DNA of 63,102 nucleotides, filler included, from Neolecta irregularis DAH-3 (Eukaryota), in assembly GCA_001929475.1 (NCBI GenBank). It is 12 parts of 12 records of this genome, joined end to end, with 100 filler letters (N's around TTAATTAATTAA, not from the genome) between each part and the next. Parts side by side here need not be neighbours in the genome. Positions count along the whole stretch, not along the records: positions 46,635 to 48,810 come from LXFE01000273.1; 11 more parts are not named here. One strand, given 5' to 3'. Of the stretch, positions 29,232-63,102 are shown piece after piece. Under the pieces are notes generated by a model. That model saw only the letters and a program-made list of their open reading frames with translations. It had not been told where the DNA came from and did not search any database. Position 1 is the first letter of the stretch; each line of letters begins with the position of its first letter. Both the position numbers and the translations under genes were made by a program.

Positions 29232-29310
29232 CCAGACTTGCTAACAAGTAACAAGTCAGACTTGCTTGCTTACTTGTTTATAAGCAAGTAAGCAAGCAAG
29301 TCTGACTTGT
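29232..29310. mobile_element. MITE-like terminus with a 60-bp palindrome
   Basis: 29251-29310 is palindromic with one mismatch; the end CCAGACTTGCTAACAAG recurs inverted at about 45888-45905; fragment also at about 31031-31054. Confidence 0.75.
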
Positions 29311-29522
29311 CGAATCACACCGGTTGTAGCGAGATATTGCAAGGGATTATTGGTCAATAGATTGTCAATTGGTGAGCTTGGTCGTATGACGTCTTAGGTC
29401 ATCGAGACTTATACAAAGAAAATTTGATTATACAGTTGGCTAACTACGAATAGAAAAGAAAGCTCGCGGCTATAAGATAGACGACATGGTCATTGAATGG
29501 CACTAGAACATCAGACGGATTT

Positions 29523-29891: not shown

Positions 29892-30139
29892 AGTTTGTGA
29901 TAACTAGAGTTGGAAATCTGGCTGTTAGACAGTTTTTTAAAAAGACCAACACTGTTTGTAACACGCAGGTTGTAGCTTAAGGTTTGGGTTCGTAGTTGTA
30001 GTATAGTTGTAATAGATTGGTTAATTATTGGGGAGCAAGGTAGTATTGGACTTCTGGATCTTTGGAGATCAGTATCAGAAGAATTGTAATATGACTGGCT
30101 ATTTAGCAAGAGAGCAAAACGGGCCTCCTTTTATAGCCA

Positions 30140-30880
30140 TTGCTGGCAAGGTAGGTCTACGTGGGGAGAAACAAGAAAAGACAATACCGAGACAGTGCTA
30201 CTGTCTCAGTATTGTCTTTCCTTAAGGTGGTCTTACAGGTCTATGTGGGGAGAAACAAAGAAATACAATACTGAGACAGGGTGGTGGGTCAGAGAGTGCA
30301 TTGCTGGGAGCAGTAGTGTGGGTGTTCTTGTGCCTTGTGGGCTAGAACTCCTATACCAGAATTTAGGTTGACTTTCTGGATAGGCTGCTAGTCACTTAGG
30401 AAGTAAAAAGTCTATTCAAATTGTCGGTTAAAAGCCTGCCCTCCTAGTGAGGTAAAAGCCTGCTATTTATAGTGAAAGAAAAGCCTTTTTTTCTCCTTCT
30501 AAATATCTGTCTAAGACTCTCAAATATTTTTCCTTGAGACAGCGTGGTGTTCTTGACGTTCTGGTCTCAGGGATATTTTCCCTGCTCAATTTGAGTCAGT
30601 GGTCGCCGAGATATAGCCATTAGCATTGCTGTGTCTTGTGTTGGTTGAGCGGCGGAGTCGGAGTGCTTATGGCGCAGATCACATGACGGGTGTCTTGCCA
30701 AAAATGCCGTGGAACCATATTTGGACCAAACTGTCAATAACTCAAGCTGTAGATGCTTGTTTCCGAATTTGGTTGAAGATTTGAGTTACTATTGGGTTCC
30801 TCTACCTTTGGGAGTATGTTGGTGAGCTTGGTGGAAAATATTGTGAGTAGTTTGGAAGATAGTTTGAAGGTTTACCATCT
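30140..30880 (-). mobile_element. Probable solo LTR / LTR-derived repeat
   Basis: About 30530-30830 resembles 39275-39565; part of it is the reverse complement of about 18320-18410, downstream of the Gypsy integrase; boundaries approximate. Confidence 0.65.
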
Positions 30881-31431
30881 TGTGTCTAGTCATTCAATTG
30901 ACTATCCTACAAGGAACCCGTAGCTGCTTTTACGTAGGACTCTGCGGATCATGCTTGTGGGGACCACAAAGCTCCACAGCGCCCAGACGGAAGTAATGGC
31001 TGGATTAGGCCTGTCAGCAGCAGAGGACGGAAGCAAGTAAGCAAGCAAGTCTGGGGATCTCATGCAGGTTCAAATCCTGTTGTCGCTATTGCAACAGGCA
31101 GGCTGCGGTTGTGGAGTTTTAGTAACTTGTCCTGGCATAGCTTTGATAAAATATGATTCTTGTCTTGAACGGATAGATAATTTTCCAGTGTCTTTCAAGT
31201 TTGAATAATAAGTGCACCGCACATTTTAGCATTAGAAAACAGTTGTTCAGATTCCTGTTCAAGCTCTTCATCCGCTTCTTTTAGAGAATATCTTTCAGGT
31301 TTGTATCAGATTCTTCAATTCATCTCGGAATCCAAAAAGGAAACATCTCTGAATGCATCAATCAAAGAAAACTCCATTCTTCATTCCCAATAATTTACAA
31401 AACTCAATTCGCTAGACTCGACGTATATATC

Positions 31432-35821: not shown

Positions 35822-36687
35822 ATGTTCTATGACCTGAACGTGCCGCACTCGCCGCACCCGGCCGTACTCGGGCACACGCTCGCCCTGCTGGCACACTGCA
35901 CCGCCCGCCGCTGCCGCTCTGCGCTGACTGCCAGTGCGCTACTCGGTCGTCGCCCTCAACCACACGCACTGCGGCCCCCTGCCGGCCCTTCTCGTACGCG
36001 CCCGGCCGGCCCTGCTAAGCGTAGCCTGCCCCGCCGCCGCCGCTACCGCCGCCGCCGCCCACCGTCACCGTGCTCTCCAGGCTCACCGTCGTGCTGCAGG
36101 AGCCCGGCGACACGCTCAACCTCGCCGCCGCCGCCCGCGCCTTCGACATCCTCGCCGCGCGCCCGCTGACGGAAAAGCTGCTGCACACCGCGTGCACGGC
36201 GCTCGACATCGACCTTGTCTCGCTCGACCTGTCGCAGCGGCTGCCCTTCGTCCTGCGCCACAGCACGCTCGCCGCCGCCCTCGCCCGCGGCGTCTGCTTC
36301 GAAATCTGCTACGCCGCCGCCCTCGACGACCCCGCCGCCCGCAGGCAGCTCGTCAGCAACGCCGCCGCCCTCGTCAGAGCGACACGCGGCCGCGGCATCG
36401 TCGTCTCCTCGCAGGCCAGGCGCGTCTTGGACTGCAGAGGCCCCTACGACGTCATCAATCTCGCCTGTCTGTGGGGGCTGAAGCAGGACCGCGCCAGGCA
36501 CGCCATCGGCCTCGCTGCACGAGCGGTCGTGCTCCACGCAGAAACCCGGAGAAATACCTTCAAGGGCGTCATAAAAGTCGTAGAGCAGGGCACAGCCCTC
36601 AAAAGAAAGGCCGTGGAATCAAATGCCTCGGCAAACACAAAAAAGTCAAAGGTCCGTCAAATGCCCTATTATTCTACAAACTCTTAA
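35822..36687 (+). CDS. RPP1: RNase P/MRP subunit p30 (Rpp1)
   Basis: MFYDLNV..L|RYSVVALNH; FDILAARP; DIDLVSLD; GVCFEICY; RGPYDVINL; introns 35898-35934 and 35994-36024. Confidence 0.93.
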
Positions 36688-39994: not shown

Positions 39995-40759
39995 CTTGAG
40001 GATGATACAGTTGAAGCAGAAATAGTCATGAGGAGAAATAATAGTAGTGTTGGAAGAAATGGCAAGATAGAAATCAATTTATATTAGCAATTGTCNNNNN
40101 NNNNNGTCCATGGGCTGGGCTGGACCCTCAGAAAAGCCCATGGGCCAGGCTTTGGCCCATTGCCAACACTGCTTGGGGATGATACAGTTGAAGCAGAAAT
40201 AGTCACGAGGAGAAATAATAGTAGTGTTGGAAGAAATGGCAAGATAGAAATCAATTTATATTAGCAATTGTCNNNNNNNNNNNNNNNNNNNNNNNNNNNN
40301 NNNNNNNNNNNNNNNNTTAATTAATTAANNNNNNNNNNNNNNNNNNNNNNNNNNNNNNNNNNNNNNNNNNNNCCGCAATATGATTCCACGCCTCTTGCCG
40401 TATTGGTAAGGTGTACCTGAAGGGTACATTCTTACACATTATGGACACTGTGAAACTGGTTATTTATATATTTGCAAGATTCATGCTGGGTAGGCTCTTG
40501 CCCGATATGCTATCGGATTTTAGGCGGCTAGTCAGCCTTGATTTGTTCCAGTAGTGGTTGCTTTTGGAACACCAATATACAAGAATTTGCGTTAGTTTAT
40601 GCAGTGCGAAGTCAGAATCTTGCATGCTGATCTTTGGCTGTGTATTTTCATTTTCTTCTCCCTTGCTCGAGTTTCACTTTTGCCAATCTTCATTTTTTCT
40701 GTCCCGACTCGTAATCACGATCTGTGCAATAGATTCCAGTCTTGCCGCGTTCTTCCCGC

Positions 40760-43752: not shown

Positions 43753-45402
43753 TCATTGACCGTTCAAATATTCATTTGTGGAAAAGTCTTCGTATTGAGT
43801 TTCGTCCCACAGTTCTGCAAGATCTTCAAAAACATTCTTTGTGCCCTTTTTGATAGGATTACCTTCAGCGTCGACAGGCGGTGGGCCAGTGGTATCTTTG
43901 TCTTCTTGAATGGTTTCGCCAAGATTGAAGAGGTCAAGAATTTGGCCAGTGTCCATTGTTGACAAGCCCGCATTTTGTTGATTGACGACTGTTGAGGCGA
44001 TGTTGAGTTTGAAACGCTGAAGGCCCATAATTTTCTCCTCGAGCGTTCCACGAGTGATTAGACGGTAAACATTAACAACCTTCTTTTGGCCAAGTCGATG
44101 CGCACGATCCATAGCTTGAAGGTCTTTCATGGGATTCCAGTCGTGTTCGACAAAGATGACGGTATCGGCTCCGGTGAGATTTAAGCCGAGACCTCCGACA
44201 TGGGTAGTCAAGAGTAAGAGATCTATAGATGGATCTGCATTGAACATTTGTACGATTTCATGGCGTTTGCGAACATCTACTCCACCGTCCAATCGCATAT
44301 ACGACACCGACGGCATTAGCGCTTTGAAAATATCCTTTTCAATCATATCCAACATTTCCTTTTGTTGGCAAAATATAAGTGCTCGATGTTGGTTGACAGC
44401 AGCTGCTAGAGTCGCGCTTTCTGAATGATCGTCAATGGCCTGTACACCAATTCCACAATCCAATAAAAGTTCCTGTAGTGCGCGGAATTTCGGCGCATGC
44501 TGTAGGTCGCGAATATTCGAGCCCAAAACTTGGAGCTGTTTAATAACTTTTTGATATTTCGGGTGATCGGGTTTAAGCACGAGTTGAGGATGATTGCATA
44601 GCTTTCGCATATACTGGAGAGCTTGAAACACATGGGTTTTCGCGGGTTTGGCATCTGAATCGAGTTGTTCGCCTAGATTTTCTGAAATGCGAGATTTTGC
44701 GAAATCTTGGTAGAGTTCTTTTTGAATATCGCTCAGTTCGCAGTAGTAGTCTTGGATGATCTTTGGGGGAAGATCTGATAATACATCTTCCTTTAATCGC
44801 CGCAAGAGGAACGGCAAAACTTGTTTATGCAACGCTTCGAGAGCCAGCGCCCCTTTTTTTGTATTAGCACGAGTAGTCGATCGGAGAAATACCGGCTTCC
44901 TGTTCCTTGGAAGAACTTTTCGAGTCGCGGCTGGCAGCAATTGGTTTTGCAAATCGTTCTTGAAAGACTTTCTCCGATCCCAAAAACCCGGGCATGAGAA
45001 AGTCAAACAAGGACCAAAGTTCAAGCACGTTATTCTGGATCGGGGTTCCAGAGAGAATTAAGCGATGTTCCGCTGGCAGGCGTTTAACCGCAAGTGTAAG
45101 TTTCGCCCGAGCGTTTTTGATGACGTGACCTTCATCAAGTACACAATAGTTCCAGTTCTGTTTGCTTAATTCATCAACGTCATTTCTACATATATCGTAT
45201 GTCGTGATGACTAGATCATGGGATGCCAAAGTGCTCCGAATTCTCTTACGCTCATTGGGATTTCCGGCATAGATCACTGCATCTATAAAAGGCGCATAGG
45301 TCTTTATCTCGAACTGCCAATGGCCGGCTAATGTAGGTGGACAAACGACGAGTGAAGGAAGCCGTCTATATTCCAACGACTGCATTTTTTCAAACCGTTG
45401 CG
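43753..45402 (-). CDS. MOT1: Mot1 SNF2-family TBP-associated ATPase, C-terminal part (5'-truncated by gap)
   Basis: VLDEGH, LSGTPIQNNVLELWSLFDFLMPG, ALEALHKQVLPF, LLTTHVGGLGLNLTGAD, QAMDRAHRLGQ. Confidence 0.96.
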
Positions 45403-45779
45403 NNNNNNNNNNNNNNNNNNNNNNNNNNNNNNNNNNNNNNNNNNNNTTAATTAATTAANNNNNNNNNNNNNNNNNNNNNNNNNNNNNNNNNNNNNNNNNN
45501 NNCCATACGATCGCGAATCCCTGGGTCGCCACAGTCACCACCAACCCGTTGGCTATCACTAATGGATTAGTAAAGGGAAACCACCAGCGTCATGGCTTCA
45601 GCCATTCAGGGTGGTCATCAGACTGACCTGATCGCTTGGATCCTTGGAGCGCTTACAGTGATATTGAAGGTGTCCGGTCCATTTGCTGTGGTAAGATTGC
45701 TGGAATGGAGATAATATTTGGTAGATATATTTAGAAAATATTCAATGTCTCATTAAAAGTCTTAACAGTCAAGTCTATT

Positions 45780-45905
45780 CAAGTCCAAACAAGCAAGTCC
45801 TTGCTTACTTGGTTATTTTTGTCCGCCGGACTTGCTTGCTTACTTGCTTATAAGCAAGTAAGCAAGCAAGTCTTACTTGAACGACTTGCTTGTTAGCAAG
45901 TCTGG
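45780..45905. mobile_element. MITE-like terminus with a perfect 44-bp palindrome (same family as 29232)
   Basis: GACTTGCTTGCTTACTTGCTTA|TAAGCAAGTAAGCAAGCAAGTC at 45829-45872. Confidence 0.75.
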
Positions 45906-46634
45906 GTGTAAGCATATACCCTTGGGTAGAGCTTACAATTACAGAAGGAAGGCTTGCAATAATATTGTGGCAATTTAATTTGTATTATATAAAGTAGATA
46001 GACGTTCATTACCTAGCCGAGTTCAGTCACTCAGGCTAGGTATGTCCACAGGGAGTTCAGTCACTCAGGCTAGTAAAAAGCAGAACCAGCAGGCACTGTG
46101 GGTATGCAGATGAGGGTGATGAAACTGCTTTTGCAAAGGGTCGCAGTGGGCAGTGGCCGACGTAATCAGGGACAGCTACGGGCAGGGGAGTATCTTCTCT
46201 ATGTGCGTGTGTCTCCCAGGCCTGAGCCCCGTAATTTCCTTCGGATCTAACAGCCGGTTCCGCGACCCTTATTTTGTTCGGCTGTCCCTATCGGGTTCGG
46301 CTCTCCCAACCCGGACGACAGCCACCAATTTCGCCCGGATCTGTTAACAAACAAATCCCGCTTCCATTATCGGGTTCTGCTATCCCAATCAGGACGCAGC
46401 CACCAGTTCTGGCCCGTTGTAGGCAGTGTTGATAGTTGTTAATGGGGTGGGGAGCCGTGGAGGGGGTTCTGAGGACAGTGTTGTGGATGGACCTAACCCT
46501 AAACCCTAATGGGTATTTAGGTAGGCCCTGGCATNNNNNNNNNNNNNNNNNNNNNNNNNNNNNNNNNNNNNNNNNNNNTTAATTAATTAANNNNNNNNNN
46601 NNNNNNNNNNNNNNNNNNNNNNNNNNNNNNNNNN

Positions 46635-48509
46635 AATCAGTTAGTCCAAAGGGATTCTCTTCTTTACCATCAAGCATGTATTATTCAAAACAAAGAAGCA
46701 AATTTGAGCAAACTTTCTAGTATTATAATAGAACCTTTTGAAAATTCAACTAGTCCAACATTAACTATTGATACTACTTCAGTTCTTTCTCCAGCAACAA
46801 CTTCTATTACTACAGCTTCTTCTTTTAGTACTATTAATGAGAAAGAGCACCAGGATTTAGTTTATAAATTTGCTAAAGCTCAGCAAGAGATTGAGGAATT
46901 GAAAAACCAATTGGCCCAAGGAGAAATAGCTCAGCATACACTTGCCCAAGCTCTTGATGACCCTGATCAAGAACAGGAAGTTATTAGTCAACTTTCATCT
47001 ACCTCCACAAAGTATCAACCCTACCAACCACTAAAGTATAAACACCCTATTCCATTACCACCACCTGCAGATTCAAAAATACTAGGGTTTCAAGAGAGAA
47101 GTAAAAGTTATATAGGTCATTCTAAATTCTATACACATTTATCTGAAAAACAAAAGGTCAAAGATACAAATACAAATACTAAATCTACTGAAATTATCTT
47201 AGGAATATCATCCTCAATACCTTCTACTAGTGGTACCCTTACTCCCTTCTCTAGAACTTTTCATCCTAAGGAACCAATTTGGGATAATGTATATTATTAT
47301 ATTCTTCCATTATGTTAAATTATTAGGCATTACCTACTATTCCCATAGGCCAAAATATCTCTAATATATTGGACTCTACTAGCTATCAAATGATTATAGA
47401 TAAACAAGAGAGTAATTGGAATGTATATTCTATTTCTTAATTCTATAAAACTGATGATTTAGAGCTATGTTGAGAGAATAATTCAGTTTAATGACCAGCA
47501 AGCTTCAATTTTCCTTCAACAAAAGCTCAAAACATGTACAATTGAACAAAAAGGATTTATTATAACTGCTGTTATTTCACAAGCATTTCCACTTATGGTT
47601 AATAAGTTTGGAAACTTTATTGTTCAAAGATGTTTTGAATATGGTACACCTTATCACCTTGCTCAGTTATCTACTATTATTGAAGGAAATGTTCTCACTC
47701 TTGCAATGGATCCATTTGGTTGTCATGTTATACAAAAATGCTTTGATTTCACTCCTGAAAGTTTCAAATTACTTATAGTTTCAGAAATGCTAAAAACAAT
47801 CCCTGAAACTGTTATTCATAAATTTGCATGTCATGTTTGGCAGAAAATGTTTGAAGTTAGATGGAACCAATCACCACCAACTATTGTGAAACATATGAAT
47901 GAAACTCTTAAAGGTAGATGGGCAGAAGTTGCAATGAGTGAGACTGGAAGTTTGGTTGTTCAAAATATTTTTGAAAATTGCACTGAAGATGAGAAGAAAG
48001 AATGTATACTAGAGGTATTATTATCTTTGGACCAAGTTATAAGAGGGAAATGGGGCAACTGGGTATGAGGCTCTATGAACTTGATCTAATATTCAAAGGT
48101 TATTCAACATATAGCTGAACATGGTGCCCCAAAATATTCAAAAAGAACACTTGCTTTAATTCTATCTAGCTCTGTAATTTATTCAGTTGATCAGTTTGCA
48201 TCTAAAGTTATTGAAAAAGTACTTAAAATATCTGGACAAAACTTTATTTCAAAGTATATTTCATGCATACTCAAGCCAGTTGAAGGAAGATCAAGAGTAC
48301 CATTAGTTGATATTGCTAGTGATCAATATGGTAATTATTTAATCAGTTGGTTGCTTTCTGCCCAACAGAGTGGGATTACTAAAGAGCAAAGAGGTCAAAT
48401 TTGCTCTACTATCAAGAAGTATCTTGTTAGTCTAAGAGGAAGTAAATTTGGGAGTAAAGTTGCATTTATGATAGATAGACCCTTTTCAACTGCAGAAAGA
48501 CAAACTTGA
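46635..48509 (+). CDS. Pumilio/PUF-family RNA-binding protein (5'-truncated, multi-exon)
   Basis: NDQQASIFLQQKLK, NKFGNFIVQRCFE, DPFGCHVIQK, HKFACHVWQK, WGNWVIQH, DQYGNYLI, SLRGSKFGSKVA. Confidence 0.93.
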
Positions 48510-48910
48510 AGGTAACTTAAAAATAGCAATTCTTTACTTTAAAATAGAACTTGTATTATAGAGTTATTATTTAGTGTAAGCATATAAGCTCACATATGCT
48601 TACTACATTTCTATTACTTTGTCCTAAATGGTGTTACATGGTACAACATGGTGTAACGTTGGTGTAACGTTGTATGACGTTAATATGACATCGCACAGCA
48701 CATGTCAATGAGGGACCTTCCTTTAGTTAAATAGCTTGCTTACCACCATACCTAACTATTCTCACTTTGTATCTATTGAGATATTAGGTATGCTGGATTC
48801 TCACTTTGTANNNNNNNNNNNNNNNNNNNNNNNNNNNNNNNNNNNNNNNNNNNNTTAATTAATTAANNNNNNNNNNNNNNNNNNNNNNNNNNNNNNNNNN
48901 NNNNNNNNNN

Positions 48911-50766: not shown

Positions 50767-51476
50767 CTAACTGCAGGTGGTTGATGGTTGGCTACAGGCG
50801 GCCAGAGCAGCAACGCGGAGGAGATGCAGGGGGAGCCGGTCGAGTACTGGGAGGCTGAGACGAGGATGCTGGGCAGCAGGCGGAGGGCTAAAAGCAGTGT
50901 GGAACTTGGTGATCGCGAGGCAGGACTTGCTGCCGGGGGTTCGGAAGAGGCAAGGGAGTGCTGGGATACGGAGGACGTTTCATGCATGCCATTCGGACGG
51001 TGAACAGGCAGTCGATAGAGTGGGGCTTGGAAATAAAAACGACTTCATCGTTCCCCCTATTGACCTAGTTTCAAAGTTGGGTAAGACTTTCAAATGGATT
51101 CACGATTCGCACTGGCTTCAAACTTAGATGTAACACGTCCAGCGGTGTCGATATGTTGTGGTTCTTCGTTTGGTATGGGTCTCGAAGATTATCGCAAAAT
51201 TCATTCCTTATATCGCCGATACTTTCGCTGGAATGGTTACAAACGACTCTAGAAAATATAAACACATAGCCGTTGCGCTGTAGGGTCCAATAACTTTGTT
51301 CCTTGCGAGTATGGTAGTATTTGTCAGCTTCTTACCTATTATGTATGAAATCATTCGACGGTTGACATGATATTTTNNNNNNNNNNNNNNNNNNNNNNNN
51401 NNNNNNNNNNNNNNNNNNNNTTAATTAATTAANNNNNNNNNNNNNNNNNNNNNNNNNNNNNNNNNNNNNNNNNNNN

Positions 51477-52826: not shown

Positions 52827-52936
52827 NNNNNNNNNNNNNNNNNNNNNNNNNNNNNNNNNNNNNNNNNNNNTTAATTAATTAANNNNNNNNNNNNNNNNNN
52901 NNNNNNNNNNNNNNNNNNNNNNNNNNCAAAATTTAT

Positions 52937-53600: not shown

Positions 53601-54286
53601 TGGGCATTTCCGGTGGACGTGTTTTGCGTGGAGCAGAAGGGGAAGTACTCGGCACACAGGGGCAGCGCCGCAGCGGCTGGAGATCACAGTATAGAATCTT
53701 GATATACAATTCATTCCGCCGTGTTGGCGCTTGACATGTTTGTCAGAATTATTATCAATAATATATACATAAACAGAGAGAAAGGATTGGAAAATAGCAC
53801 CATCTTGAGACGTTTAGTTAAAAAATCCTCCATTTCTGTTCCTGATTTGACATTTCCAATGTATTTAAATTACTCAAAGCAACGTTATCGAAAAGATTGG
53901 AAACATTGTGGACCAATTGACGTAGCGAATCGTCTTTTTCTGTATTCTGGATATAAAGGAGCATTCGTTTTATTTCGTTGAGGGCCAGAGATCCAGTCCA
54001 ATCAACCGTTTTTAAAATATCTGAGAGTAAAACGAGACAAGCTAGAATTATTACGGCGATAAAAGGGAATACCCCTTTTTACAGAGACTTGCGAGTCTAG
54101 GTTTAACAGGACAAGGGCAGAATGAACNNNNNNNNNNNNNNNNNNNNNNNNNNNNNNNNNNNNNNNNNNNNTTAATTAATTAANNNNNNNNNNNNNNNNN
54201 NNNNNNNNNNNNNNNNNNNNNNNNNNNAAAATAATCAAATGGATGAATGAAAACTCCTCAAGGCAGTCTATATAATATAATTCCCC

Positions 54287-55149
54287 TTAATTCAGAACAA
54301 GCTCGGTTCCAAACGTTAGTCTTTCACCAGAAGCAATCTTTGCAGTGCTTTCGATTAAATCATAATTTAACTTGCGTCCCGGAGTTTTCGCAAGTGGACT
54401 AGGCGATGCATTGAAAAAGTCTTCCAAGCAAAAATCTCTCGGCGTTTGAGGATTTCCAGACTGTATCGGGGTGAATCTACTTGGGCTCGTTAGGAGTGCG
54501 AATCGGAAGTTCGGAGTTGCTGGAGAAGGGGAGGTAGCGAGATGTAGGAGTAAATCTGCGTCGGAATCTTTAGAACGAGGTGGTGTACGTGGAGGAAGAG
54601 GACTAGATGAGAGGCAAGTGATATCTAGGAGCTTTGATTCTCGGAAAGCGGGAGGTCCAGGAAGCAAAGGTAATGGTGATGATTGAAGCCTCATAGTTGA
54701 GAATTTGCGGATAGGTGAAGATTGGTATTGCCGTTCGGGAATTCTGATCGTATCCATAGAAATGGCTTTCTTGACTTTGCTCATCCCAAGTTTTTTCTCG
54801 GTTCTCATTCTTTTAGTCTTGGTTGCAGGAGTAGGTAAGAGTGGTGGCGGGTTGAAAGCTTTAGGCGACAAATTACGAGTCTGTGGACCGGGCGAAGATT
54901 GCAAAGCAGGCGGAAGGGTAAAGTCATAAACATCTGCATAGTCCAAACTTTTCCCACGGATTTTTGTGGTAGCAGCCCAAATATTCCTTCGAAGATGGTA
55001 AGTCATCTGTTCATCAGTTATTTGGCAACCGATTGAGAACAGCTTACTTTTGCTATTTCTTCTCTTCGCGAAACTTTCCTGGAAATCTCCAGACATCTCT
55101 CATCGGTCCAGGAGGTTGTGACAGACGCAAATGAGGGACAAGCAGCCAT
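54287..55149 (-). CDS. Stb1/Whi5-like G1/S transcription regulator (one intron)
   Basis: ADLLLHLATSPSP motif as in Stb1-type proteins; many S/T-P CDK sites; GTAAGC..ACAG intron joins MAACPS.. to MTYHLRRN. Confidence 0.6.
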
Positions 55150-55280
55150 ATTGTCGGGCGAAAACTATTTAGGGCAGAGGAAAGGGGGTGGTAAAATTGG
55201 GGGCGCAGTGCGACTTAGCGACGCCGCTGCAGCTCAAACAGGAAGACGGTAATAGTCGTGTCAGTCTCGTGTTTCGTGTA

Positions 55281-55585
55281 AAGGTTAACGAATATCCATC
55301 CACCTCCCGGGATTTAGAGATGGTAAAAGAAGAACCCGTCCAACCAGAAAGCATCTCCCACATGAATCAAATCCATACGAAAGCCGCTAGGTAGTCTTTT
55401 CGATGATGATGGAGAGAAAATGGATATAGATATGCCTGAATCTTCTGCGCCGGATTTTTTATATTTATTAAATTGTTGACAAATAAAGTAACAAATAGTT
55501 ATTCCGACGACAAGGTTATGGTGCAATTCTACCAGCGTCTCTATCCTTTTCGTCATATATTCCACTAGTCAAATCATTCCCGGTT
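55281..55585 (+). pseudogene. Truncated duplicate of the PRI1 5' end
   Basis: Closely similar to about 57316-57617 (MVKEEPVQPE..FYQRLYPFRHIF), followed by a stop. Confidence 0.85.
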
Positions 55586-55986
55586 GATAGGAGCAAAGAC
55601 ATTGGGCTGCGCAGGTATTTAGGATGTCCTGCCCCTCTTTCTTTTTTTAATACAGAAGAATAAGAAACAGTAAATAATCGTCAGTAAGGAACTATTGCCA
55701 TCCTCATAACCAGCCCAAGCTCCCATTCCCCCCTTGTTCCTCCTTTTCGAGTTCCAAATCCTAGGACGGATTCAGCGCGACACGTTCATGTTTGATTCTT
55801 TGACATCGTGAAACAACCGCTCAATTTCAGTCCCTTTTATAACCGAATGGCCGCTCCCCTTTTCATCCAGAGGTCGGCATGTGGTTCAAGATAAACGATC
55901 CAAAAATTTCTACATAATGCGGTTCAAGAGGCGTTCTGACACATACCGATCCCGCATGCACTATAAACCTCGGCCCTTCCGTATCG

Positions 55987-57245
55987 TCACCTTCGTCTCC
56001 CAAATCGACCCCCATTCTTTGCACCGCGATTCCTCAACTTCAGACTCCGAAAATTTTTACTCACTTGGGCAGTCAAATTCAAACCACCTTTAACTTTTGC
56101 TTTCCGAACAGCTTTTTTCTGCTTCACAGTATCCAGAACATACTTGGGTTTTTCTTGGTCATCACTTACGGCCTCTAAATCGGACGGTGGTTGCATTTCC
56201 TTATCTTGCTGTCGTTCAACGTCTTCTTTGACAACACTTTTGCCGATTTTGGCTGTTGAAGAAGCGGCAGGAACTGGTCGCACTGTAGAGTCAATTTGGT
56301 ACAACAAAATTAATTCACGCTTTGCACGACGTTTTGTCTTTTGAGTCGCTTTCTTCCTCCATTGCGGAGCAAATGTCTTATCAATTCCGTCTACTCCCTG
56401 CTTATTTCCACCATCTTCCTCGTGAGGTTCGATGGCAGTAAGATTGCCTTGCTCTAATTCTCGAAGGACCCCTTCACCTTCATCCTCTGCTTCGTCTTCT
56501 AATTGACGGATTTCCGCTATAAGCGTACTGAATCCTTTCCCTCGGGGCTTTTGAAAGAGTTTAAGTGGAGATTCAGAGGCTCGATAGATCCGGAATATAG
56601 CAGGAGACGAAGGTATGGGTGATCTTGTGGGAGTTTTGCAGGGACTAGATAGGTCATAACGTCGTAAACTGCGAAATATTACGTCTGACAAGGAATCATT
56701 TTCTGAACTTTGCTTGGTGTGTTTGGATCACCAAACATGTTTTTCCTTTTCAAGGGCGATAATCCATCGAACAATCCTAAAGCACGTCCATTAACCTGTG
56801 GTGTTGGTCCCACAGAATTGATAAACGGGCTCCCTTTCAAAGGTGTTGTTTCGAGGAATGGAGACCGACTGGGTGTCATTGTCTGTAAAATCTGCTCAAG
56901 TTTCTGAGGATCGTCGAACTTAATCTGGGGTGTTTTTGTGGGAGTTGATAATTTCCTTGGAGAGGGACTTTCAACAATGAATGGAGTGATGCGTGTAACT
57001 TTCTTCCTTGACGGAGTTTGAGGAGATTTCGGTAGAGCGGGAGGCCGTGACTTGGATTTAGACTTTCTTAGCTTCTCGTATCTTTTGTAGAGAGTCGCTG
57101 GGTGGATAAGAAAGAATATGACAGAATGATTGTTACAGATCTCAAGATTGGCTTTAATGTCATTGCGATCGGGTTTTCTTGAATGCTCCTTGGCAAAAGA
57201 GTACTCAAACTCTTTCAATTTTAAGCGGATAGAATCAGCGTCCAT
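55987..57245 (-). CDS. SLD2: DNA replication regulator Sld2/Drc1
   Basis: LKLKEFEYSF..RKPDRNDIK..I|ATLYKRY; GPTPQVNGRALGLFD; WRKKATQKTKRR; SKNFRSLKLR; many TP/SP sites. Confidence 0.9.
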
Positions 57246-57295
57246 TCGAAGGATCAGAAGGATATATTATCCTTGTGGAAACAGCATGGGGGAAA

Positions 57296-57312
57296 CCGCG
57301 AAGTCAACGCGT
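57296..57312. promoter_or_regulatory. MCB cell-cycle boxes in the SLD2/PRI1 bidirectional promoter
   Basis: CGCGAA near 57297 and ACGCGT at 57307-57312 within a 105-bp gap between two S-phase genes. Confidence 0.75.
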
Positions 57313-57350
57313 GTGGTTAACTAATATCCATCCACCTCACCGGTTTAGAG

Positions 57351-58950
57351 ATGGTAAAAGAAGAACCGGTCCAGCCAGAAATCATCTCTCAGATGGACCA
57401 AATCCATACGAAGCCGCTAGATAATCTTTTCGATGATGATGACGGAGAGAAGATGGACATAGACATGACTGAATCTTCGGCGCCGTACTTTGGACATTTA
57501 TTAAATTGTTTACAAATAGAGTAACCTTTAGTCATTCCGATGAAAAGGTTATGATGCAATTCTACCAGCGTCTTTATCCTTTTCGCCATATATTCCTCTG
57601 GTTAAATCATTCCCAGTTATCCTCAAAAGACTTTTCAAATAGAGAATTTGCATTTACCCTGCAAAACGATGCTTATTTACGCTATCAATCGTTCAATTCA
57701 TTCGAAGCATTAAAAAAAGATGTCTTGCAGAAGAACCCGTCCCGGTTTGAAATTGGGCCGGTATATTCAGCAAATCCACGAGATCGTAAAACGCTAAGAA
57801 AGGCAATGTTCAAACCTCTTGAAAAAGAGTTAGTATTCGATATCGATATGACTGACTATGACGATGTTCGAACATGCTGTTCGAAAACAAATATCTGCGA
57901 AAAATGCTGGAAGTGGATAATCATTGCAATCAGAATCATTGACACCGCCCTTCGGGAAGATTTCGGGTTTAAGCATATCCTGTGGGTATATAGTGGTAGG
58001 AGAGGTGCTCATGCTTGGGTTTGTGATAAAAGAGCGCGAATCATGGATGATCAGAGACGGCGAACTGTAGCCAATTATCTTGAAGTTGTACGAGGGACGC
58101 CGCAAGGGAAAAAAGTAGACTTGAAGAGGCCCCTACATCCTCACATTTCGTACGATATATGCGACGCAGGCACTGAAGGTGTAGACGGAGTTTGGATATG
58201 CTGAGGACAGAATTTAAAAGTCACATTCTTGAAGATCAAGATCCATGGAGGAATTCTCAGGGCACGGAAAAATTGTTAAACCTTCTTCCAGATCGGGGTA
58301 GTTCGCTATTCAGTTATGGTGAACTTGATGTATAGAACTGAACGAAGCACTGAGGAAAAAATGGACGGCCCATCCTCAACGTCCTAGCGAAAACAAATGG
58401 GCAGATATCGATGCATTGGCTGAAAGCGGTGTCTCGCAGGTATTCTTTTATTCTCTTTGGAAAATTTACGAGGTCTAGGCACTAAATACGAAAGCGCTAG
58501 TAGCTGCTAAACAGGACATCCTTCTCGAATACATGTACCCTCGTCTTGATGTCGAAGTGTCAAAACATCTCAACCATTTGCTTAAAGCTCCGTTTTGCGT
58601 ACATCCTGGCACCGGTGCGAAGTTTAGTATTGTGTTGCTGATAGAAAACTAGGTCGAATATGTGTACCCATCGATCCAAATCATCTGGAATCGTTCAATC
58701 CGATGGCTGTTCCAACTGTAACTCAACTTCTTACGGAAATTGATGAATTTGAAACTGGGCGAGGTGAGGAGGACAAGAAAGTTGAAGGTGCAAACAGCAA
58801 TTTTTCAAAAATAACTTATTCGTAGATTATGAGAAGACCAACCTTAAATCTTATGTGGAGTTCTTCAGCAATTTCGTGGTGGGTATCCTGGCTGACGAGA
58901 AGCGACTAAAACGGGAGAGGGAAGAAGGTATTGTTCGACTGGACTTTTGA
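57351..58950 (+). CDS. PRI1: DNA primase small subunit
   Basis: NREFAFTL, PSRFEIGPVY, KELVFDIDMTDYD, VYSGRRGAH, YPRLDVEVSKHLNHLLKAPFCVHPGTG. Confidence 0.97.
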
Positions 58951-59352
58951 ACATATTATTCCCATCTCCACAAATCATAATTTTGATGTCTCATTGACTA
59001 CCAACTAGATCGCCTAGTACTGACAGTCTGAGGTAAACTTATTGGAACTATTTGATTTCCTTATCATATGAAGTTAAGTTATTCTCACGGCCTGTTCCCA
59101 AATCCAAAATTAGTTTTACATCTAGGTTAATCTGGTTAAATCTATGCAGGTTGAGTAATGCCGAGTTGACAATTCCAAGCGACCGAACTCTCCTTTTACA
59201 CTTCATAAGGTAAAAACACCTACATATCTTAACCCACTTTCTGATATATCTACACCTTTGTGGAGTCGCATATTTCGTATATATATGTGCTGATCGACAA
59301 TGACTCTGACATCAAATTATTCCAGTTACTTACCCACCTTCCAAACTATAAA

Positions 59353-59938
59353 ATGTCTTACGTAACCAATGCTACCTGTCTATTCTGCAAAATTGTCAAG
59401 GGTAAACCAGTGAAAAATCTTTGATTCTGATTGATTGTAGGCGATATCCCATCGCTAAAACTTGCAGAGACTGCGACTGCGTAAGGACCCTTTTAATCAG
59501 AATAGATTTCACAAATTCCAGTTATGCTTTTATGGACATTCAACCTTTGAGCAAGGGACATGCCGTATTCTCTTTCCTAATAAAATTGATTGTTTGATGT
59601 TTTACAGCTTATTATTCCAAAATATCATGCAGAGAAATTACACGAGTTACCCCACGACACACTCTCAGATATCCTTCCCATGGCCGTTCAAATTGCGAAA
59701 GCCATAGGATGCGAGAACTACAATATTCTCCAAGTATAACCTTCTCTTAGTTATTAATACTGATTTGTGGAACAATGGAGCCTTGGCTCATCAAGTTGTT
59801 CATCATGTTCATTTCCACTTAATCCCAAAGACTCAGTTTAAAGATGGATTGACCCTGGAATGGGATCCATTAGATCTTGATAAGCAAACTTCTCAAAATT
59901 ATTATCAAGCAATCATGGAAAAGATGAACAAATTATGA
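59353..59938 (+). CDS. HNT1: HIT-family nucleotide hydrolase (Hnt1)
   Basis: CLFCKIVKGDIPS, FMDIQPLS.GH.LIIPKYH, YNILQNNG..AHQVVHHVHFHLIPK. Confidence 0.9.
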
Positions 59939-60066
59939 AGAGCTGGTGCAAAGCTAAGGAAATATTATGTCTTGAGCTGTAGAGAAAGCGTATACGAATA
60001 TTCCCGATCTCCTGGGATAGCGTGACTCTTCTTCGTTTTGTAATGTGAAAGAGAACGGTATTTATG

Positions 60067-60666
60067 TTATGTTCCACGTCCCCTCGTACCCCTTTTGGCA
60101 GCACGTGCTGTTCCTCTCCCTCGCCCTCTGCCAATATTTTCCGGTACTCTCTTGGCTTGAGGAGCATTGGGTTCTTTGACGAATGAAGTATTGTTGGTGA
60201 CAAATGTCTGCTCCGTCATATCATCTCGTTCCCACTGATGGGGCGTCGGAACTTGAAGATCTCTCGCTGCACGTTCTGCAGCTATTCCATTAGCAAAAGT
60301 TCTATTCCAGGTTCTAGATGCCATCTTTTTCTTTTTCGCGACTAAAGCTCTCGGCCATGGGTGCCTAAGGCCGTTATGGTTTCAGCTATGAATGGACGAA
60401 AGTACCTCTGGGAAATCAACACAAAAAGCATTCATATTAAGACCGTAAAGAAAGCTCGCAAAGCTCTCGCCGAATTTCGCAATGCTCTCATTTAATATAC
60501 TTAATTGTTCGAAATTAGTATTGAGATCGGTCAAAGAGTCTGAGAGTTCCGCAAAAGCCGGTTCAAGCGAATATAGCGGAAATGTTGCCTCGGAAGGATG
60601 AGATTTGGAGAACGAGCCTTTTGATATTCGGCGGAGCGGAGTCGTTGGGCGGGATCGCTTGGACAT
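60067..60666 (-). CDS. DAM1: DASH complex subunit Dam1
   Basis: RPTTPLRR; LEPAFAELSDS; F.ESFASFLYGLNMNAFCVDFPE|AP. Confidence 0.92.
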
Positions 60667-60902
60667 GTGTGTTTAGGTTAAAATGATCGCTGTTGATGAT
60701 GATCACGTTAATGACTTGCCAGGGATTCTTAAAAATCCCAATCATCCGTTCCCTGTTCGACATACTTCTCCATTAAAAACTCTGGTTTTTTCCAGAAGGG
60801 AAGAATTTGCCAAGTTTTTGGGTGGGCGACGTGTCCCGTCCCACCTCGCCCATCTTGCGCATCCTGTCCCCGCCTCGCCTATCCCGCGCGTCCGTCCCGC
60901 GC

Positions 60903-60970
60903 GTCCTGCCAGTCCTATGGGTCCTGCCAGTCCTGTGGGTCCTGCCAGTCCTGTGGGTCCTGCCAGTCCC
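60903..60970. repeat. 18-bp tandem repeat in a C-rich, MITE-interior-like region
   Basis: GTCCTGCCAGTCCT(A/G)TGG about 3.5 times; nearby CCCGCCTCGCCTA also occurs inside the 39607 MITE. Confidence 0.75.
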
Positions 60971-62087
60971 GCCCGCCTGTCTCTCCCGTCTTGCCCGCCC
61001 ATCTCTCTCAGCTCACCCATCATTCCTGTCTCCCACACCCATTTGGCCTATTTTGGCCTATTTTGGCCACCCACCTTGCCTGCCTGCTTGTCAGTTCCTT
61101 CTTGCCAATATTTAAATAAATATAAAGAATTATATACATAATATAATAATTTAAACTCACTTTTTAACATATCCCTGCTATGCCCATCTCTGCCCTGATA
61201 CATGGATGAATTTGAGCCATCAGATGGTTTATACTTTTCTTATAGGGTCATTCTTTCCATCAAACAGGAGTGTAAAAACAAACAAGAAATTAAATGATTG
61301 CAATCAGTGTCCAACTATAAGTGATACACTTGGGGTACAAATATGACTAGGTTTTGTCTAACATATATTATATGAATGAAACCCCAATGGACATACCTAA
61401 CCTATGTTATATGAATGTAACCCAGGTTAGGTATATGTGGTTCCCTTCCTTTTATACCCTCTTCCTTAATGCCGTCACTTTAAGCCACTTGCTGTATTGG
61501 TAAGAATATTCTATTAATGGTGCACGTCAAGTTTTGACCAAGGGATAACCTTGAGCCCTTTGGCCGATTGTTTTGCCCAATATCCACGAGGTCGCAGTGC
61601 GTCTAAAAGTTTCGTTTTTGCCAAATCTATTGAACAACCCTCTGCAGCTGCAAGTTTTGCGATAATATTGATTGCGTCCAGTTGATACTTTGAAGGAGAT
61701 TGAATTGAGTACTAGCAATTACTTAAACTCTGCTAAAATGCATTCACCAATTCATCCAATGAAGATCTCATCCTGTATCGATGTGCGTTATAGGTTGACG
61801 GAATTGCCCGCCATGCCGTTCGCATTGGTTCACATCCGTCAAGGATGCATGCNNNNNNNNNNNNNNNNNNNNNNNNNNNNNNNNNNNNNNNNNNNNTTAA
61901 TTAATTAANNNNNNNNNNNNNNNNNNNNNNNNNNNNNNNNNNNNNNNNNNNNGGGCCGAAGCCCATGGGCTTTTTAAAAAGCCTGGCCCATGGCCTTTTT
62001 TGAGGGTCAGGCCCGGCCCATGGGGCTTTTTTGAGGGTCCGGCCTGGCCCATTGCCTTTTTCATGTACAGGCCCATGGGCCAGGCCG

Positions 62088-63042
62088 GGCCTAACATGTG
62101 ACAACCTATTTGGGTGGTGGCGGACATGTGTATTGGATGGATGGCAAGTGTAAGTTGTTGAGCCTAAAGCACAGAGGGTGAACCTAGATGTTGCAAATGC
62201 TTATAGGATTATAGATTGTTAAGCATGGTTTTATTGGATTTTAGTCTCAGGTTGTCAAGACTTAGAAACAGAAATAAGTTAATACAATTGGCTAGCTCAC
62301 AATACAGAAGACCAGCCTTTTAATAGCCACCAGCAACAGGCTGGTATCAAATGGAAACAGTACAAAGAGGAAGAAGGAGAAGTAACGGGAACAGAAAACA
62401 ACAGAGATACAAAACCCAGAGTAGCAGAAGGCTCAAGGCTGCACAGCAGTTCACCAGCCACCCTGGAAACAGAGATAAACAAACAAAAAGGAAAAGAAAA
62501 AGGGTATGCCAGTATCTTTCTAGGCCCACCAGAATGGTGTAGGATGATGAAGGGAGGGGGAGGAAGGTTGGGTAGTTTCTGGCCTTGACAGCTTAGGATC
62601 TTTGGGCGGCTGTAAGCACATAAACTCCTATCTGCTTACTACATTTCCTTTACTTTGTCCTATGTCGTACTACGTTGTGTAACGTTGTACAACATTGTGC
62701 GACGTTGGTGTAACGTCGCACAACGTACGNNNNNNNNNNTAGGCCTAACATGTGACAACCTATTTGGGTGGTGGCGGACATGTGTATTGGATGGATGGCA
62801 AGAGTAAGTTGTTGAGCCTAAAGCACAGAGGGTGAACCTAGATGTTGCAAATGCTTATAGGATTATAGATTGTTAAGCACGGTTTTATTGGATTTTAGTC
62901 TCGGGTTGTCAAGACTTAGAAACAGAAATAAGTTAATACAATTGGCTAGCTAACAATACAGAAGACCAGCCTTTTAATAGCCACCAGCAGCAGGCTGGTA
63001 TCAAACGGAAACAGTACAAAGAGGAAGAAGGAGAAGTAACGG
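62088..63042. repeat. Two copies of an about 300-bp repeat (about 62088-62388 and 62742-63042)
   Basis: Near-identical copies separated by a 10-N gap; each begins with hAT-MITE-related sequence. Confidence 0.85.
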
Positions 63043-63102
63043 TGTCGACGAAATACCTCTTGGGTGTTTCGCTGAACCAGGTTATGTGAAGTTAACCAAA
63101 CT

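Follow-up and report, generated by a model that had tools for sequence, protein, structure and literature searches.

How can a conserved gene lose every CpG dinucleotide over about 2 kb and keep its reading frame? The question is raised by a Pumilio-family (PUF) gene in a stretch of 63,102 nucleotides from Neolecta irregularis DAH-3 (GenBank assembly GCA_001929475.1), here called the window, which is made of 12 parts of 12 records. The 11 linkers that join the window contigs are artificial, each consisting of 100 bp (44 N, TTAATTAATTAA, and another 44 N). One of them (46535-46634) separates the PUF contig from a different contig on its left (45503-46534). The PUF contig (LXFE01000273.1; 46635-48810, plus strand) is a stand-alone piece of 2,176 bp with a GC content of 0.325, compared to about 0.43 in the other contigs, and it contains 4 CpGs where 57.4 would be expected (observed-to-expected ratio [o/e] of 0.07). 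It differs from the bulk contigs of the host in GC content, third-position GC content (GC3), and dinucleotides, and its dinucleotide signature departs from the bulk beyond CpG; similar patches are found inside host contigs. The initial annotation had contrasted the gene with CpG-normal genes around it. The window contigs of at least 2.4 kb indeed have a CpG o/e of 0.87 to 0.97, but these genes lie on other, linker-joined contigs and, because the joins are artificial, give the PUF gene no local context. Within one Neolecta contig, composition can swing at the scale of a gene: the RNase P p30 open reading frame (ORF) has a GC3 of 0.83, compared to about 0.4 in its neighbors on the same contig. 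An Rfam scan of the whole window at gathering thresholds gave no matches.

From position 46635 to 48650, we counted no CG, compared to 51.7 expected from the base composition (334 C and 312 G; Poisson P[0 | 51.7] = 3.5e-23). The first CG is at position 48657, in agreement with the earlier reading that dozens of CpGs were missing. GC dinucleotides occur at a normal number in the same interval (53), and the CpG o/e of 0.00 (gene) to 0.07 (contig) stands beside a GpC o/e of 1.01. The resulting CpG-free gap is the longest of the window (2,201 bp, from 46456 to 48657, including the 100-bp linker), with runners-up of 534 and 477 bp. Random reassignment of synonymous codons, with the codon usage of the gene kept fixed, predicted 10.75 ± 2.6 CpGs, and none of the 5,000 shuffles reached zero. 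C|G junctions between codons were likewise absent (12.3 expected from 52 codons ending in C and 139 starting with G), and the protein back-translated with the codon usage of 23 other window ORFs would carry 58.8 ± 6.4 CpGs. All 15 arginine codons are AGR (14 AGA and 1 AGG), just as first described. Nor does any CpG occur in the three introns or in 147 nt of downstream sequence, but the expectation there is only 4.3. What is depleted is the CpG dinucleotide itself, and codon usage does not account for the loss.

CpG loss is not the whole of the bias. The GC3 of the gene is 0.16 to 0.21 (about 0.18), whereas values elsewhere in the window range from 0.30 to 0.83. By an arithmetic estimate, about 130 third-position G or C bases are missing, compared to about 59 CpGs expected under bulk codon usage. 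CpG decay therefore covers less than half of the missing bases, and a general GC-to-AT bias is also required. TpG plus CpA, the products of CpG decay, is only marginally higher in the PUF contig (1.17 versus 1.01 to 1.16 in bulk contigs), AG/CT is 1.21 versus 0.95 in the bulk, and TA is 0.88 versus 0.72.

Despite being described as intact, the gene lacks its 5' end. Exon 1 (46635-47288; GC3, 0.18), which codes for a Ser/Thr-rich and coiled-coil N-terminal part, is truncated at the contig end. It is followed on the plus strand by intron 1 (47289-47326; 38 nt; GC, 0.16), exon 2 (47327-47422; 96 nt), intron 2 (47423-47462; 40 nt; GC, 0.20), exon 3 (47463-48061; GC3, 0.21) with the core of the PUF repeat domain (PF00806; E = 2.9e-37), intron 3 (48062-48097; 36 nt), and exon 4 (48098-48509; GC3, 0.16), which carries the C-terminal PUF repeats and a TGA stop. 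The introns all run from GT to AG, and they are free of CpG, as are exons 1, 3, and 4 and the unique 3' flank (48510-48574, plus strand), a probable 3' untranslated region. Starting at its very first base, the contig has an open frame of 586 codons but no start codon (Met), and the matching NCBI protein entry is flagged as partial. The absent start codon is a consequence of assembly truncation and not a sign of decay.

The gene had also been proposed to be silenced by methylation. This proposal finds no support: a 1,488-nt spliced contig of the gene occurs at a word depth of 358 in one sequencing run (X2), which is the sole sign of transcription in a set where no run is listed as RNA. The same spliced contig defined intron 1. 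The intron lengths resemble those of an oligopeptide transporter gene on the 17-kb bulk contig (42, 37, 37, and 38 nt), where four introns up to residue 390 of this one annotated gene were located by exact protein-to-DNA mapping. A heuristic intron finder run over ORF pairs gave five unique candidates, two of them plausible, and an intron motif-length histogram was not clearly above that of shuffled sequence.

NCBI annotates the product, on a 2,176-bp contig, as "Meiotic coiled-coil protein 2" of N. irregularis DAH-3. The protein matches PF00806 with 143 bits (E = 1.4e-42; cutoff, 26.3), and its best 120 named matches (E = 1e-87 to 8e-85) all belong to a single set of orthologues. No sequence in the top 150 of 1.84 billion representatives exceeds 66% identity, and the best identity over most of the PUF domain is 49 to 56%; PUF-domain identity to Taphrinomycotina and Pezizomycotina orthologues is 51 to 57%. 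A second Neolecta Mcp2 was found neither among the 120 named matches nor among 20 looked-up representatives (17 of them named). The contig is best explained as carrying the 5'-truncated, single-copy orthologue of fission yeast Mcp2, an RNA-binding protein of the Pumilio family. Its role is presumably meiotic, an assumption that we carry over from fission yeast protein names. With Schizosaccharomyces Mcp2/Mpf2 and the other ascomycete orthologues it shares the PUF repeat domain, the N-terminal coiled coil, and 93 of the 103 columns that show no variation across 13 orthologues; unlike them, it has a long branch, deviant amino acid usage, and a missing 5' end.

In a 64-row tree, built without other PUF classes as an outgroup, the Pezizomycotina clade (SH-aLRT, 99) excludes the Neolecta protein, as does the clade with both named Saccharomycotina rows (98). 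The protein sits in the Taphrinomycotina grade, in an order left open among Saitoella, Schizosaccharomyces Mcp2, Pneumocystis, and Savitreella, and the placement rests on a long and compositionally deviant branch (1.78 versus a median of 0.59). The share of FYMINK residues is 0.320 and that of GARP residues is 0.162 (0.24 to 0.33 and 0.17 to 0.245, respectively, in orthologues), and arginine is scarcer (0.033 versus about 0.06) and lysine more abundant (0.078 versus about 0.05). At the 12 columns where at least 10 of 13 orthologues have arginine, Neolecta has AGA six times, lysine five times, and a CAA-encoded glutamine once. This mixed fate of conserved arginines points to a gradual process rather than a single burst. 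Judged from its sequence, the protein looks functional and is under purifying selection with AT-driven drift. The purifying selection assumed at the outset is supported by the conserved columns and by the spliced form in run X2.

The contig closes with a high-copy repeat (48575-48810), recognized by a rise in word depth and by a related copy elsewhere in the window (62611-62716; 75.5% identity over 106 nt; E = 2.5e-16). In the DNA-type run, the unique part has a word depth of about 350, single repeat variants have depths of 285 to 472, and the summed depth climbs from about 350 to between 2,640 and 44,774 at the repeat. By index, run X1 has a 0.87 share of the words; its placed pieces cover 48414-48810 alone, but records are dropped by a filter and the gap carries no meaning. 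Its contig over 48414-48623 has a depth of 351.6. Our reference for these depths is the 199-fold coverage given in the genome paper. An ACGT-rich minisatellite inside the repeat (approximately 48630-48700) holds all four CpGs of the contig (48657, 48668, 48678, and 48692). Each of the four varies to TG or CA among the repeat copies in run X1, and two more sites alternate between TG and CA; a change of CG to TG or CA fits 9 of the 11 listed variant places, and the other pattern noted, G to A in a TpG context, fits 2 of the 11. The gene's setting fits that of a repeat-rich, CpG-hypermutable region. We also considered a tie between this repeat and a 48-bp palindrome (29255-29305 and 45826-45875) and rejected it, as the one shared 10-mer is within chance.

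Other CpG-poor sequence occurs in the window. A degenerate Ty3/gypsy-type integrase relic (17094-18456, plus strand; Integrase_H2C2, E = 1e-10) makes up its own contig of 1,363 bp, with a CpG o/e of 0.16 (8 of 50 kept) and a signature that matches the PUF contig (mean absolute dinucleotide difference, 0.070). Its homologues comprise four matches at 49 to 58% identity. The relic is interrupted by in-frame stops, including TAA stops, one of which stands where the H2C2 finger consensus expects glutamine; on our own reading, this is a probable CAA-to-TAA change. Patches with a PUF-like signature also sit within bulk contigs bearing ordinary genes: a noncoding one at 29201-31200 in a 20-kb bulk contig (49 CpGs versus 89.2 expected) and an AT-rich one (GC, 0.33) at 61081-61473 in the 7.6-kb bulk contig 54228-61852 (no CpG versus 10.6 expected).

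The explanation that we favor, with about even confidence, is that this is a genuine Neolecta gene located in repeat-rich, CpG-hypermutable, and probably CG-methylated chromatin, where it is held together by purifying selection. The contig itself is very probably Neolecta's own DNA. Adjoining high-copy repeats, the gene would belong to a compartment in which CpGs undergo strong C-to-T mutation and composition in general shifts from GC to AT. CG methylation of repeat-rich chromatin, putatively by a DNMT5-type methyltransferase, followed by deamination of 5-methylcytosine (5mC), would be the likeliest origin of the mutation at CpG; the gene's location would then be heterochromatic. Over what was presumably a long time, every CpG would have decayed within codons, at codon boundaries, in the introns, and in the 3' flank. 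Selection would have preserved the frame, the splice sites, and the PUF fold and let through only tolerable routes (arginine as AGA or replaced by lysine or glutamine, leucine to isoleucine, and histidine to tyrosine), leaving a gene that is apparently still transcribed and correctly spliced. Without a single CpG, the gene would now offer CG methylation no target. More tentatively, and with less than even confidence, we propose that Neolecta, in contrast to the model fission yeasts, kept CG-specific DNMT5-type methylation and that this, over a long period, scrubbed all CpGs from at least one essential, expressed, repeat-embedded gene.

The usual picture of 5mC in fungi is of a repeat mark that spares genes, and Taphrinomycotina are commonly regarded as lacking methylation. 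Against our explanation, Bewick et al. are said to have found, in 2019, that 5mC in fungi generally marks repeats rather than active genes. The Methods of a preprint (bioRxiv 10.1101/2023.05.12.540427, v2) mention PF00145 proteins in N. irregularis and S. complicata and state that BLAST searches with them drew SNF2 ATPases and helicases from Pneumocystis. Version 1 of the same preprint (PMC10327204) states that there are no DNA methylases in any sequenced Taphrinomycotina, so the two versions conflict on Neolecta. The PF00145 proteins reported in v2 make 5mC possible in the lineage, and the SNF2 matches from Pneumocystis fit the architecture of DNMT5, which combines a methylase with SNF2. In the literature that we searched on Neolecta, Taphrinomycotina, and Saitoella, we found no report of CpG depletion or 5mC in Neolecta.

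The composition could also be that of a foreign genome, AT-rich and CpG-poor, if the PUF contig, possibly together with that of the integrase relic, came from another fungus in or on the fruiting bodies. The assembly was made from field-collected fruiting bodies according to the genome paper, the contig is small and unlinked, and its GC content, GC3, arginine codon choice, and dinucleotides are unlike the bulk and like those of another small contig. A single cause would cover every difference in composition, and the look is that of a classic contaminant. However, the same signature recurs in patches inside bulk contigs, the introns are as short as Neolecta's, and the contig is present in both study runs (spliced at a word depth of 358 in one, with a unique part at about 350 in the other). 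No close relative emerged among the 150 best database representatives. Metagenome scans were empty as well: an exact 30-mer search of metagenome contigs gave no matches, and a scan with the PUF protein gave 122 pattern matches and no confirmed relative. The protein branches in the Taphrinomycotina grade, Neolecta's own, so a donor would need to be another deep ascomycete that is yet to be sampled, and no second Neolecta Mcp2 turned up beside the one on this contig. Contamination had been named as the finding that would overturn the initial annotation, but relatives from another sampled lineage were not found, and we consider a foreign origin unlikely.

If the DNA is Neolecta's own, the mutational process may still differ from the one that we favor. 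A duplication-triggered, premeiotic, CpG-preferring C-to-T mutator resembling repeat-induced point mutation (RIP) could have acted on the repeat and spilled into the single-copy gene. The gene abuts a high-copy repeat, total CpG removal suits an enzymatic mutator, and both the TAA stops of the integrase relic (one at the H2C2 glutamine site) and the two G-to-A repeat variants in a TpG context are in line with it. Canonical RIP depletes CpA/TpG, with thresholds of (CpA+TpG)/(ApC+GpT) below about 1.03 and TpA/ApT above about 0.89. TpA/ApT in the AT-rich PUF contig is on the RIP side at 0.95 to 0.99 (bulk, 0.68 to 0.73; at its highest, 0.99 versus about 0.70), which AT-richness in general also predicts. 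The substrate index is not: at 1.26 to 1.32, it equals that of the bulk contigs (1.27 to 1.31). Moreover, a burst would turn CGN arginine codons into Cys, His, Trp, Gln, or stop, whereas 6 of the 12 conserved arginines are still encoded, as AGA, which needs C-to-A transversions and time, and the 586-codon frame is fully open. The literature searched yielded no report of RIP in Neolecta, and such a mutator seems improbable to the same degree as a foreign origin. Still less probable is that selection itself removed the CpGs because an active gene in CG-methylated chromatin is favored without methylatable sites. Depletion is total here (0 of about 52), compared to 8 of 50 kept in the nonfunctional relic, the gene is expressed, and CpGs return exactly where the repeat starts. 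Yet mutation pressure, if strong, can by itself clear 2 kb of CpGs, and the introns and 3' flank are too short to discriminate. We know of no precedent for adaptive CpG avoidance by a gene in methylated chromatin, and because the idea requires the same methylation system, it is more a refinement of our favored explanation than a competitor. The least probable of these, by our estimate, is plain AT drift in a recombination-cold region, with neither GC-biased gene conversion nor methylation. It would draw on the strong gene-scale GC swings in this genome, such as that at RNase P p30, and on the more than half of the GC3 deficit that is unrelated to CpG. Drift of this kind, however, lowers C and G without removing CpG relative to base composition, and here the CpG o/e is 0 at a normal GpC.

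Parallels to the favored explanation, hypermutable and probably methylated chromatin, exist in other fungi. CpG depletion of CG-methylated, repeat-rich chromatin under DNMT5- or DNMT1-type maintenance methylation is known from the centromeric retroelements of Cryptococcus neoformans. The PUF contig resembles such chromatin in its CpG-specific loss with normal GpC, its repeats, the retroelement relic, and the CG/TG/CA variation among copies. It differs in that the target is a conserved, spliced, single-copy coding gene, the loss is total, and both methylation and enzyme are putative. RIP leaks into single-copy effector genes of AT-rich isochores in Leptosphaeria maculans, and in Neurospora it spreads beyond duplications. 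Neolecta likewise has a functional, AT-rich gene of low GC3 beside repeats, but the target is CpG and not CpA, the RIP substrate index is unchanged, and the lineage is Taphrinomycotina. Basidiomycete transposable elements undergo CpG-biased hypermutation (TCG to TTG), which is similarly a C-to-T change centered on CpG in repeats; it has been described in transposable elements of another phylum, whereas here a conserved host gene is affected.

If our explanation is correct, a CpG-directed mutator can change which codons a working gene uses, and even its conserved arginines, without loss of the fold that selection maintains. Under the more tentative proposal, Mcp2 would be the first known example of CpG-free escapee genes that reside in heterochromatin. 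It would also offer the first evidence of 5mC shaping protein-coding evolution in Taphrinomycotina, including the lysines and glutamine at 6 of 12 conserved arginine positions. CpG o/e and GC3 per gene could then serve as a cheap signature of heterochromatin-embedded genes in draft genomes of unculturable fungi, and Neolecta would lend itself to work on DNMT5-type methylation near the base of Ascomycota. Should the contig be foreign after all, the result would be worth flagging in curation of the LXFE01 assembly. Finally, the window contains an SNF2 ORF (43753-45054, minus strand), which we considered as a DNMT5 candidate and rejected. Its best solved relatives are four "Helicase-like protein" chains of 1,847 to 1,897 residues, which we take to be Mot1.

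The window contains 11 linkers of 100 bp (44 N, TTAATTAATTAA, 44 N) and four 10-N gaps, and is therefore a set of separate assembly contigs in series. The linkers lie at 16994-17093, 18457-18556, 19869-19968, 40273-40372, 45403-45502, 46535-46634, 48811-48910, 51377-51476, 52827-52926, 54128-54227 and 61853-61952, and window findings that rely on adjacency across them are unsafe. The Pumilio-repeat (PUF) gene occupies a separate contig (46635-48810; 2,176 bp; GC, 0.325; CpG observed/expected [o/e], 0.07), with N44-TTAATTAATTAA-N44 blocks on its two sides (46535-46634 and 48811-48910). A protein database entry, [quoted passage not shown] (P0001, 553 amino acids), matches exon 3 with 100% identity, and its record gives a contig of 2176 bases, in agreement with this arrangement. 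The initial annotation described an intact gene among CpG-normal neighbors, a framing that is not confirmed. The other genes are indeed CpG-normal (o/e of 0.87-0.97 in window contigs of at least 2.4 kb), but they lie on different contigs and so are not neighbors of the PUF gene. The gene itself is incomplete, with a frame that is open from the first base of the contig and lacks a start codon.

The four exons (46635-47288, 47327-47422, 47463-48061 and 48098-48509; plus strand) join into 586 codons plus TGA and contain P0001 exactly. The three introns (38, 40 and 36 nt) are all GT..AG. The Pfam PUF repeat family matched the whole of P0001 with an E value of 1.4e-42 and exon 3 with 2.9e-37. In the public sequencing run X2, a 1,488-nt contig (word depth, 358) omits precisely these three introns and otherwise has four single-base differences from the window, none of which makes a CpG. 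This spliced form shows that in at least one sample the gene is transcribed and its introns are removed correctly (the library type of X2 being an automated guess), and the idea that it is methylation silenced is therefore unsupported.

The count of zero CpG over about 2 kb held up. Between 46635 and 48650 we found no CG dinucleotide, against 51.7 predicted from base composition (334 C, 312 G); the GC dinucleotide occurred 53 times. The first CG after 46635 is at 48657, and the four CpGs of the contig all lie within 48657-48693, outside the gene. The resulting CpG-free gap (46456 to 48657; 2201 bp, including a linker and the end of the preceding contig) exceeds the next longest in the window (534 bp, followed by 477 bp) fourfold. 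When synonymous codons were permuted among positions of the gene, keeping its own very AT-rich usage, 10.75 ± 2.6 CpGs arose at codon junctions, and none of 5,000 shuffles reached zero. C-ending codons (n = 52) never preceded G-starting codons (n = 139), against 12.3 expected cases, and recoding the protein according to codon usage in 23 other window ORFs gave 58.8 ± 6.4 CpGs. Arginine was encoded by AGR in all 15 codons, as initially annotated. Together, the shuffle, junction, recoding and arginine-codon results establish that the count is correct and far beyond chance, and that codon choice does not explain it.

The protein is clearly under purifying selection, which agrees with the initial annotation: Neolecta keeps 93 of the 103 PUF-domain columns that are invariant in 13 ascomycete orthologues. 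The 10 changes are conservative (L>I and L>M twice each, R>K, Q>K, H>Y, I>V, M>V and A>C). Composition is pushed toward AT-rich codons, with FYMINK at 0.320 (0.24-0.33 in orthologues), GARP at 0.162 (0.17-0.245), arginine at 0.033 (~0.06) and lysine at 0.078 (~0.05). GARP in Mcp2 of Pneumocystis, whose genome is AT-rich, is 0.23-0.245. At the 12 columns with arginine in at least 10 of the 13 orthologues, Neolecta has AGA six times, lysine five times and CAA-encoded glutamine once. CGN becomes AGA only by a C>A transversion, which CpG transitions cannot give; the other fates are glutamine directly (CGA to CAA) or lysine after AGA (AGA to AAA). This pattern indicates that mutation pressure acted gradually over a long time and that selection filtered it. 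One burst of hypermutation does not fit, as it would be expected to have put Cys, His, Trp, Gln or stop codons where arginine is conserved. CpG loss is also insufficient by itself: the third-position deficit is about 130 G/C (GC3 of 0.18 versus ~0.40 over 587 codons), against ~59 CpGs expected under bulk usage, so a general GC-to-AT bias acts too. Elsewhere, this genome does show composition swings on the scale of single genes. The RNase P subunit p30 ORF (36025-36684, plus strand; PF01876, E = 3.6e-54) forms a gene-sized GC-rich island in a 20-kb contig (GC, 0.67; GC3, 0.83, versus ~0.4 in other genes of the contig; CpG o/e, 1.27). Another GC-rich stretch, at 3275-4444, had no Pfam match.

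According to the Neolecta genome paper, its authors collected the fruiting bodies that yielded the DNA and RNA, and the assembly spans 14.5 Mb with an N50 of 16 kb, 44% GC and 199-fold coverage (PMC5309816). Contamination is with such a source a real possibility, and by composition the PUF contig looks foreign. GC3 of the gene is 0.16-0.21, versus 0.30-0.83 in 42 other tabulated ORFs, and the departure from the bulk contigs (the larger, CpG-normal ones) extends beyond CpG: AG/CT is 1.21 versus ~0.95, AT 0.89 versus ~1.03 and TA 0.88 versus ~0.72. The mean absolute signature difference from bulk contigs is 0.163 (0.121 without CG), compared with 0.084 among bulk contigs. Even so, we consider it unlikely that the contig came from another organism in the fruiting bodies, and its assignment to Neolecta is well favored. 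Several independent lines of evidence point this way. No close relative of P0001 was found: it forms its own cluster among 1.84 billion cluster representatives. In the best 150 matches, those over most of the PUF domain have 49-56% identity, and the highest value listed (66%) is in a 140-residue fragment. Metagenome contigs gave no match in an exact-30-mer scan and no relative in a protein-guided scan with P0001.

The phylogeny also speaks against a foreign source. The 64 rows of the tree comprised P0001, 15 named orthologues chosen by hand out of the 120 listed, and 48 of 62 representatives (P0005 and P0121-P0181; 14 short-match rows and P0182-P0268 were left out). P0001 fell outside a 34-row clade to which every named Pezizomycotina row belonged (SH-aLRT, 99), and it was also excluded from the clade containing the two named Saccharomycotina rows (SH-aLRT, 98). 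The unresolved group in which it was placed also held Saitoella, Schizosaccharomyces Mcp2, Pneumocystis and Savitreella, and Mucoromycota and one chytrid branched beyond it. This position is where Neolecta belongs, the exact place being unsure because of a long branch (1.78; median, 0.59) and a deviant amino acid makeup. The PUF introns resemble in size those of an oligopeptide transporter gene on the 16,993-bp contig (P0272, 749 amino acids; 5495-7934, minus strand), whose very short annotated introns measured 42, 37, 37 and 38 nt in a protein-to-DNA mapping that resolved four introns and was exact up to about residue 390. Word depth is only suggestive of Neolecta ownership: in the DNA-type run X1 it was ~350 on the unique part and 285-472 for single variants of the flanking repeat, alongside the 358 of the spliced form in X2. 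No second Neolecta Mcp2 was present among the 120 named matches listed or the 20 representatives looked up (17 named).

The same CpG-poor signature also occurs inside bona fide bulk contigs, which further argues against foreign DNA. An ORF-free patch at 29201-31200 holds 49 CpGs where 89.2 are expected; when CG is excluded, it lies 0.046-0.057 in signature distance from the low-CpG class and 0.10-0.12 from bulk. The 20-kb contig around it also bears genes for ERO1, the NADH dehydrogenase 49-kDa subunit, CENP-L, Sec20 and RNase P p30. Another ORF-free patch, at 61081-61473 in an otherwise CpG-normal contig, has no CpG against 10.6 expected.

At its 3' end (~48575-48810) the PUF contig runs into a high-copy repeat, where summed word depth in X1 rises from ~350 to 2,640-44,774 and where the assembler perhaps stopped. 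A related copy lies on another small contig (62611-62716; 75.5% over 106 nt, E = 2.5e-16). Evidence of a CpG-directed process comes from this repeat and from an integrase contig. All four CpGs of the PUF contig vary among repeat copies in X1: C>T at 48657, C>T at 48668 with G>A at 48669, and G>A at each of the sites 48679 and 48693. TG/CA alternation at 48675/48676 and 48689/48690 is as expected if an ancestral CG had decayed on one strand in some copies and on the other strand in others. Of the 11 variant places listed, 9 are CpG-type changes and 2 are G>A in a TG context. A further small contig (17094-18456; 1,363 bp; CpG o/e, 0.16) carries a degenerate Ty3/gypsy-type integrase with an H2C2 zinc finger (Integrase_H2C2, E = 1e-10), an rve core and in-frame TAA stops, whose best protein relatives have 49-58% identity. 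The dinucleotide signature of this contig nearly equals that of the PUF contig (difference of 0.070; 0.065 without CG, CA and TG).

We give about even chances to a reading in which this Mcp2-type Neolecta gene adjoins repeats in CpG-hypermutable, probably CG-methylated chromatin, where every CpG would have been stripped over a long period, with the protein maintained by selection and the gene still expressed. The evidence base is a single contig of 2 kb in a draft assembly. Leakage from the flanking repeat of a RIP-like mutator that prefers CpG is a doubtful alternative; canonical RIP is opposed by a (CpA+TpG)/(ApC+GpT) ratio of 1.26-1.32, as in bulk. Adaptive CpG avoidance in the gene seems improbable, and plain AT drift, which leaves the dinucleotide specificity unexplained, marginally more so. 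Although the class of mechanism is known, a total effect on a conserved, working Taphrinomycotina gene would be a new form of it; our literature search gave no Neolecta paper dealing with CpG depletion, 5mC or RIP.

DNMT5, a CG-specific maintenance enzyme, is a fusion of a methylase with an SNF2 ATPase. In its first version, a preprint states that DNA methylases are absent in all sequenced Taphrinomycotina, Neolecta included (PMC10327204). Version 2 reports PF00145 proteins in Neolecta irregularis as well as Saitoella complicata; in BLAST on Pneumocystis these proteins retrieved SNF2 ATPases and helicases (bioRxiv 10.1101/2023.05.12.540427). From these SNF2 matches and the DNMT5 architecture, we infer that the Neolecta proteins are of the DNMT5 class. 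An SNF2/Helicase_C ORF in the window (43753-45054, minus strand; the gene runs past the contig end at 45402) was rejected as DNMT5. It is Mot1-like, its best solved relatives being four "Helicase-like protein" chains of 1,847-1,897 residues (E = 1e-144 to 4e-140), which we take to be Mot1.

Several short repeats were also seen. A ~48-bp palindrome (GACTTGCTTGCTTACTTG.TTATAAGCAAGTAAGCAAGCAAGTC) at 29255-29305 in the 20-kb contig and at 45826-45875 in contig 45503-46534, with a half copy near 31037-31060 (minus strand), could represent a short, dispersed hairpin element. Contig 45503-46534, intermediate in dinucleotide signature (CpG o/e, 0.61), carries a CCCTAA-like telomere-repeat fragment near its end (cctaaccctaaaccctaa, 46487-46510). 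The repeat family beside the PUF gene includes an ACGT-rich minisatellite (units like GGTGTAACGTT) at 48630-48700 and 62660-62729. The PUF-contig copy contains ATGACGT, the core of the fission yeast M26/CRE site, a match that is probably a coincidence. On the window's final scaffold, GGCCCATGGGC-type short repeats (61953-62090) precede a ~310-bp unit that occurs twice (62090-62400 and 62745-63050) across a 10-N gap.
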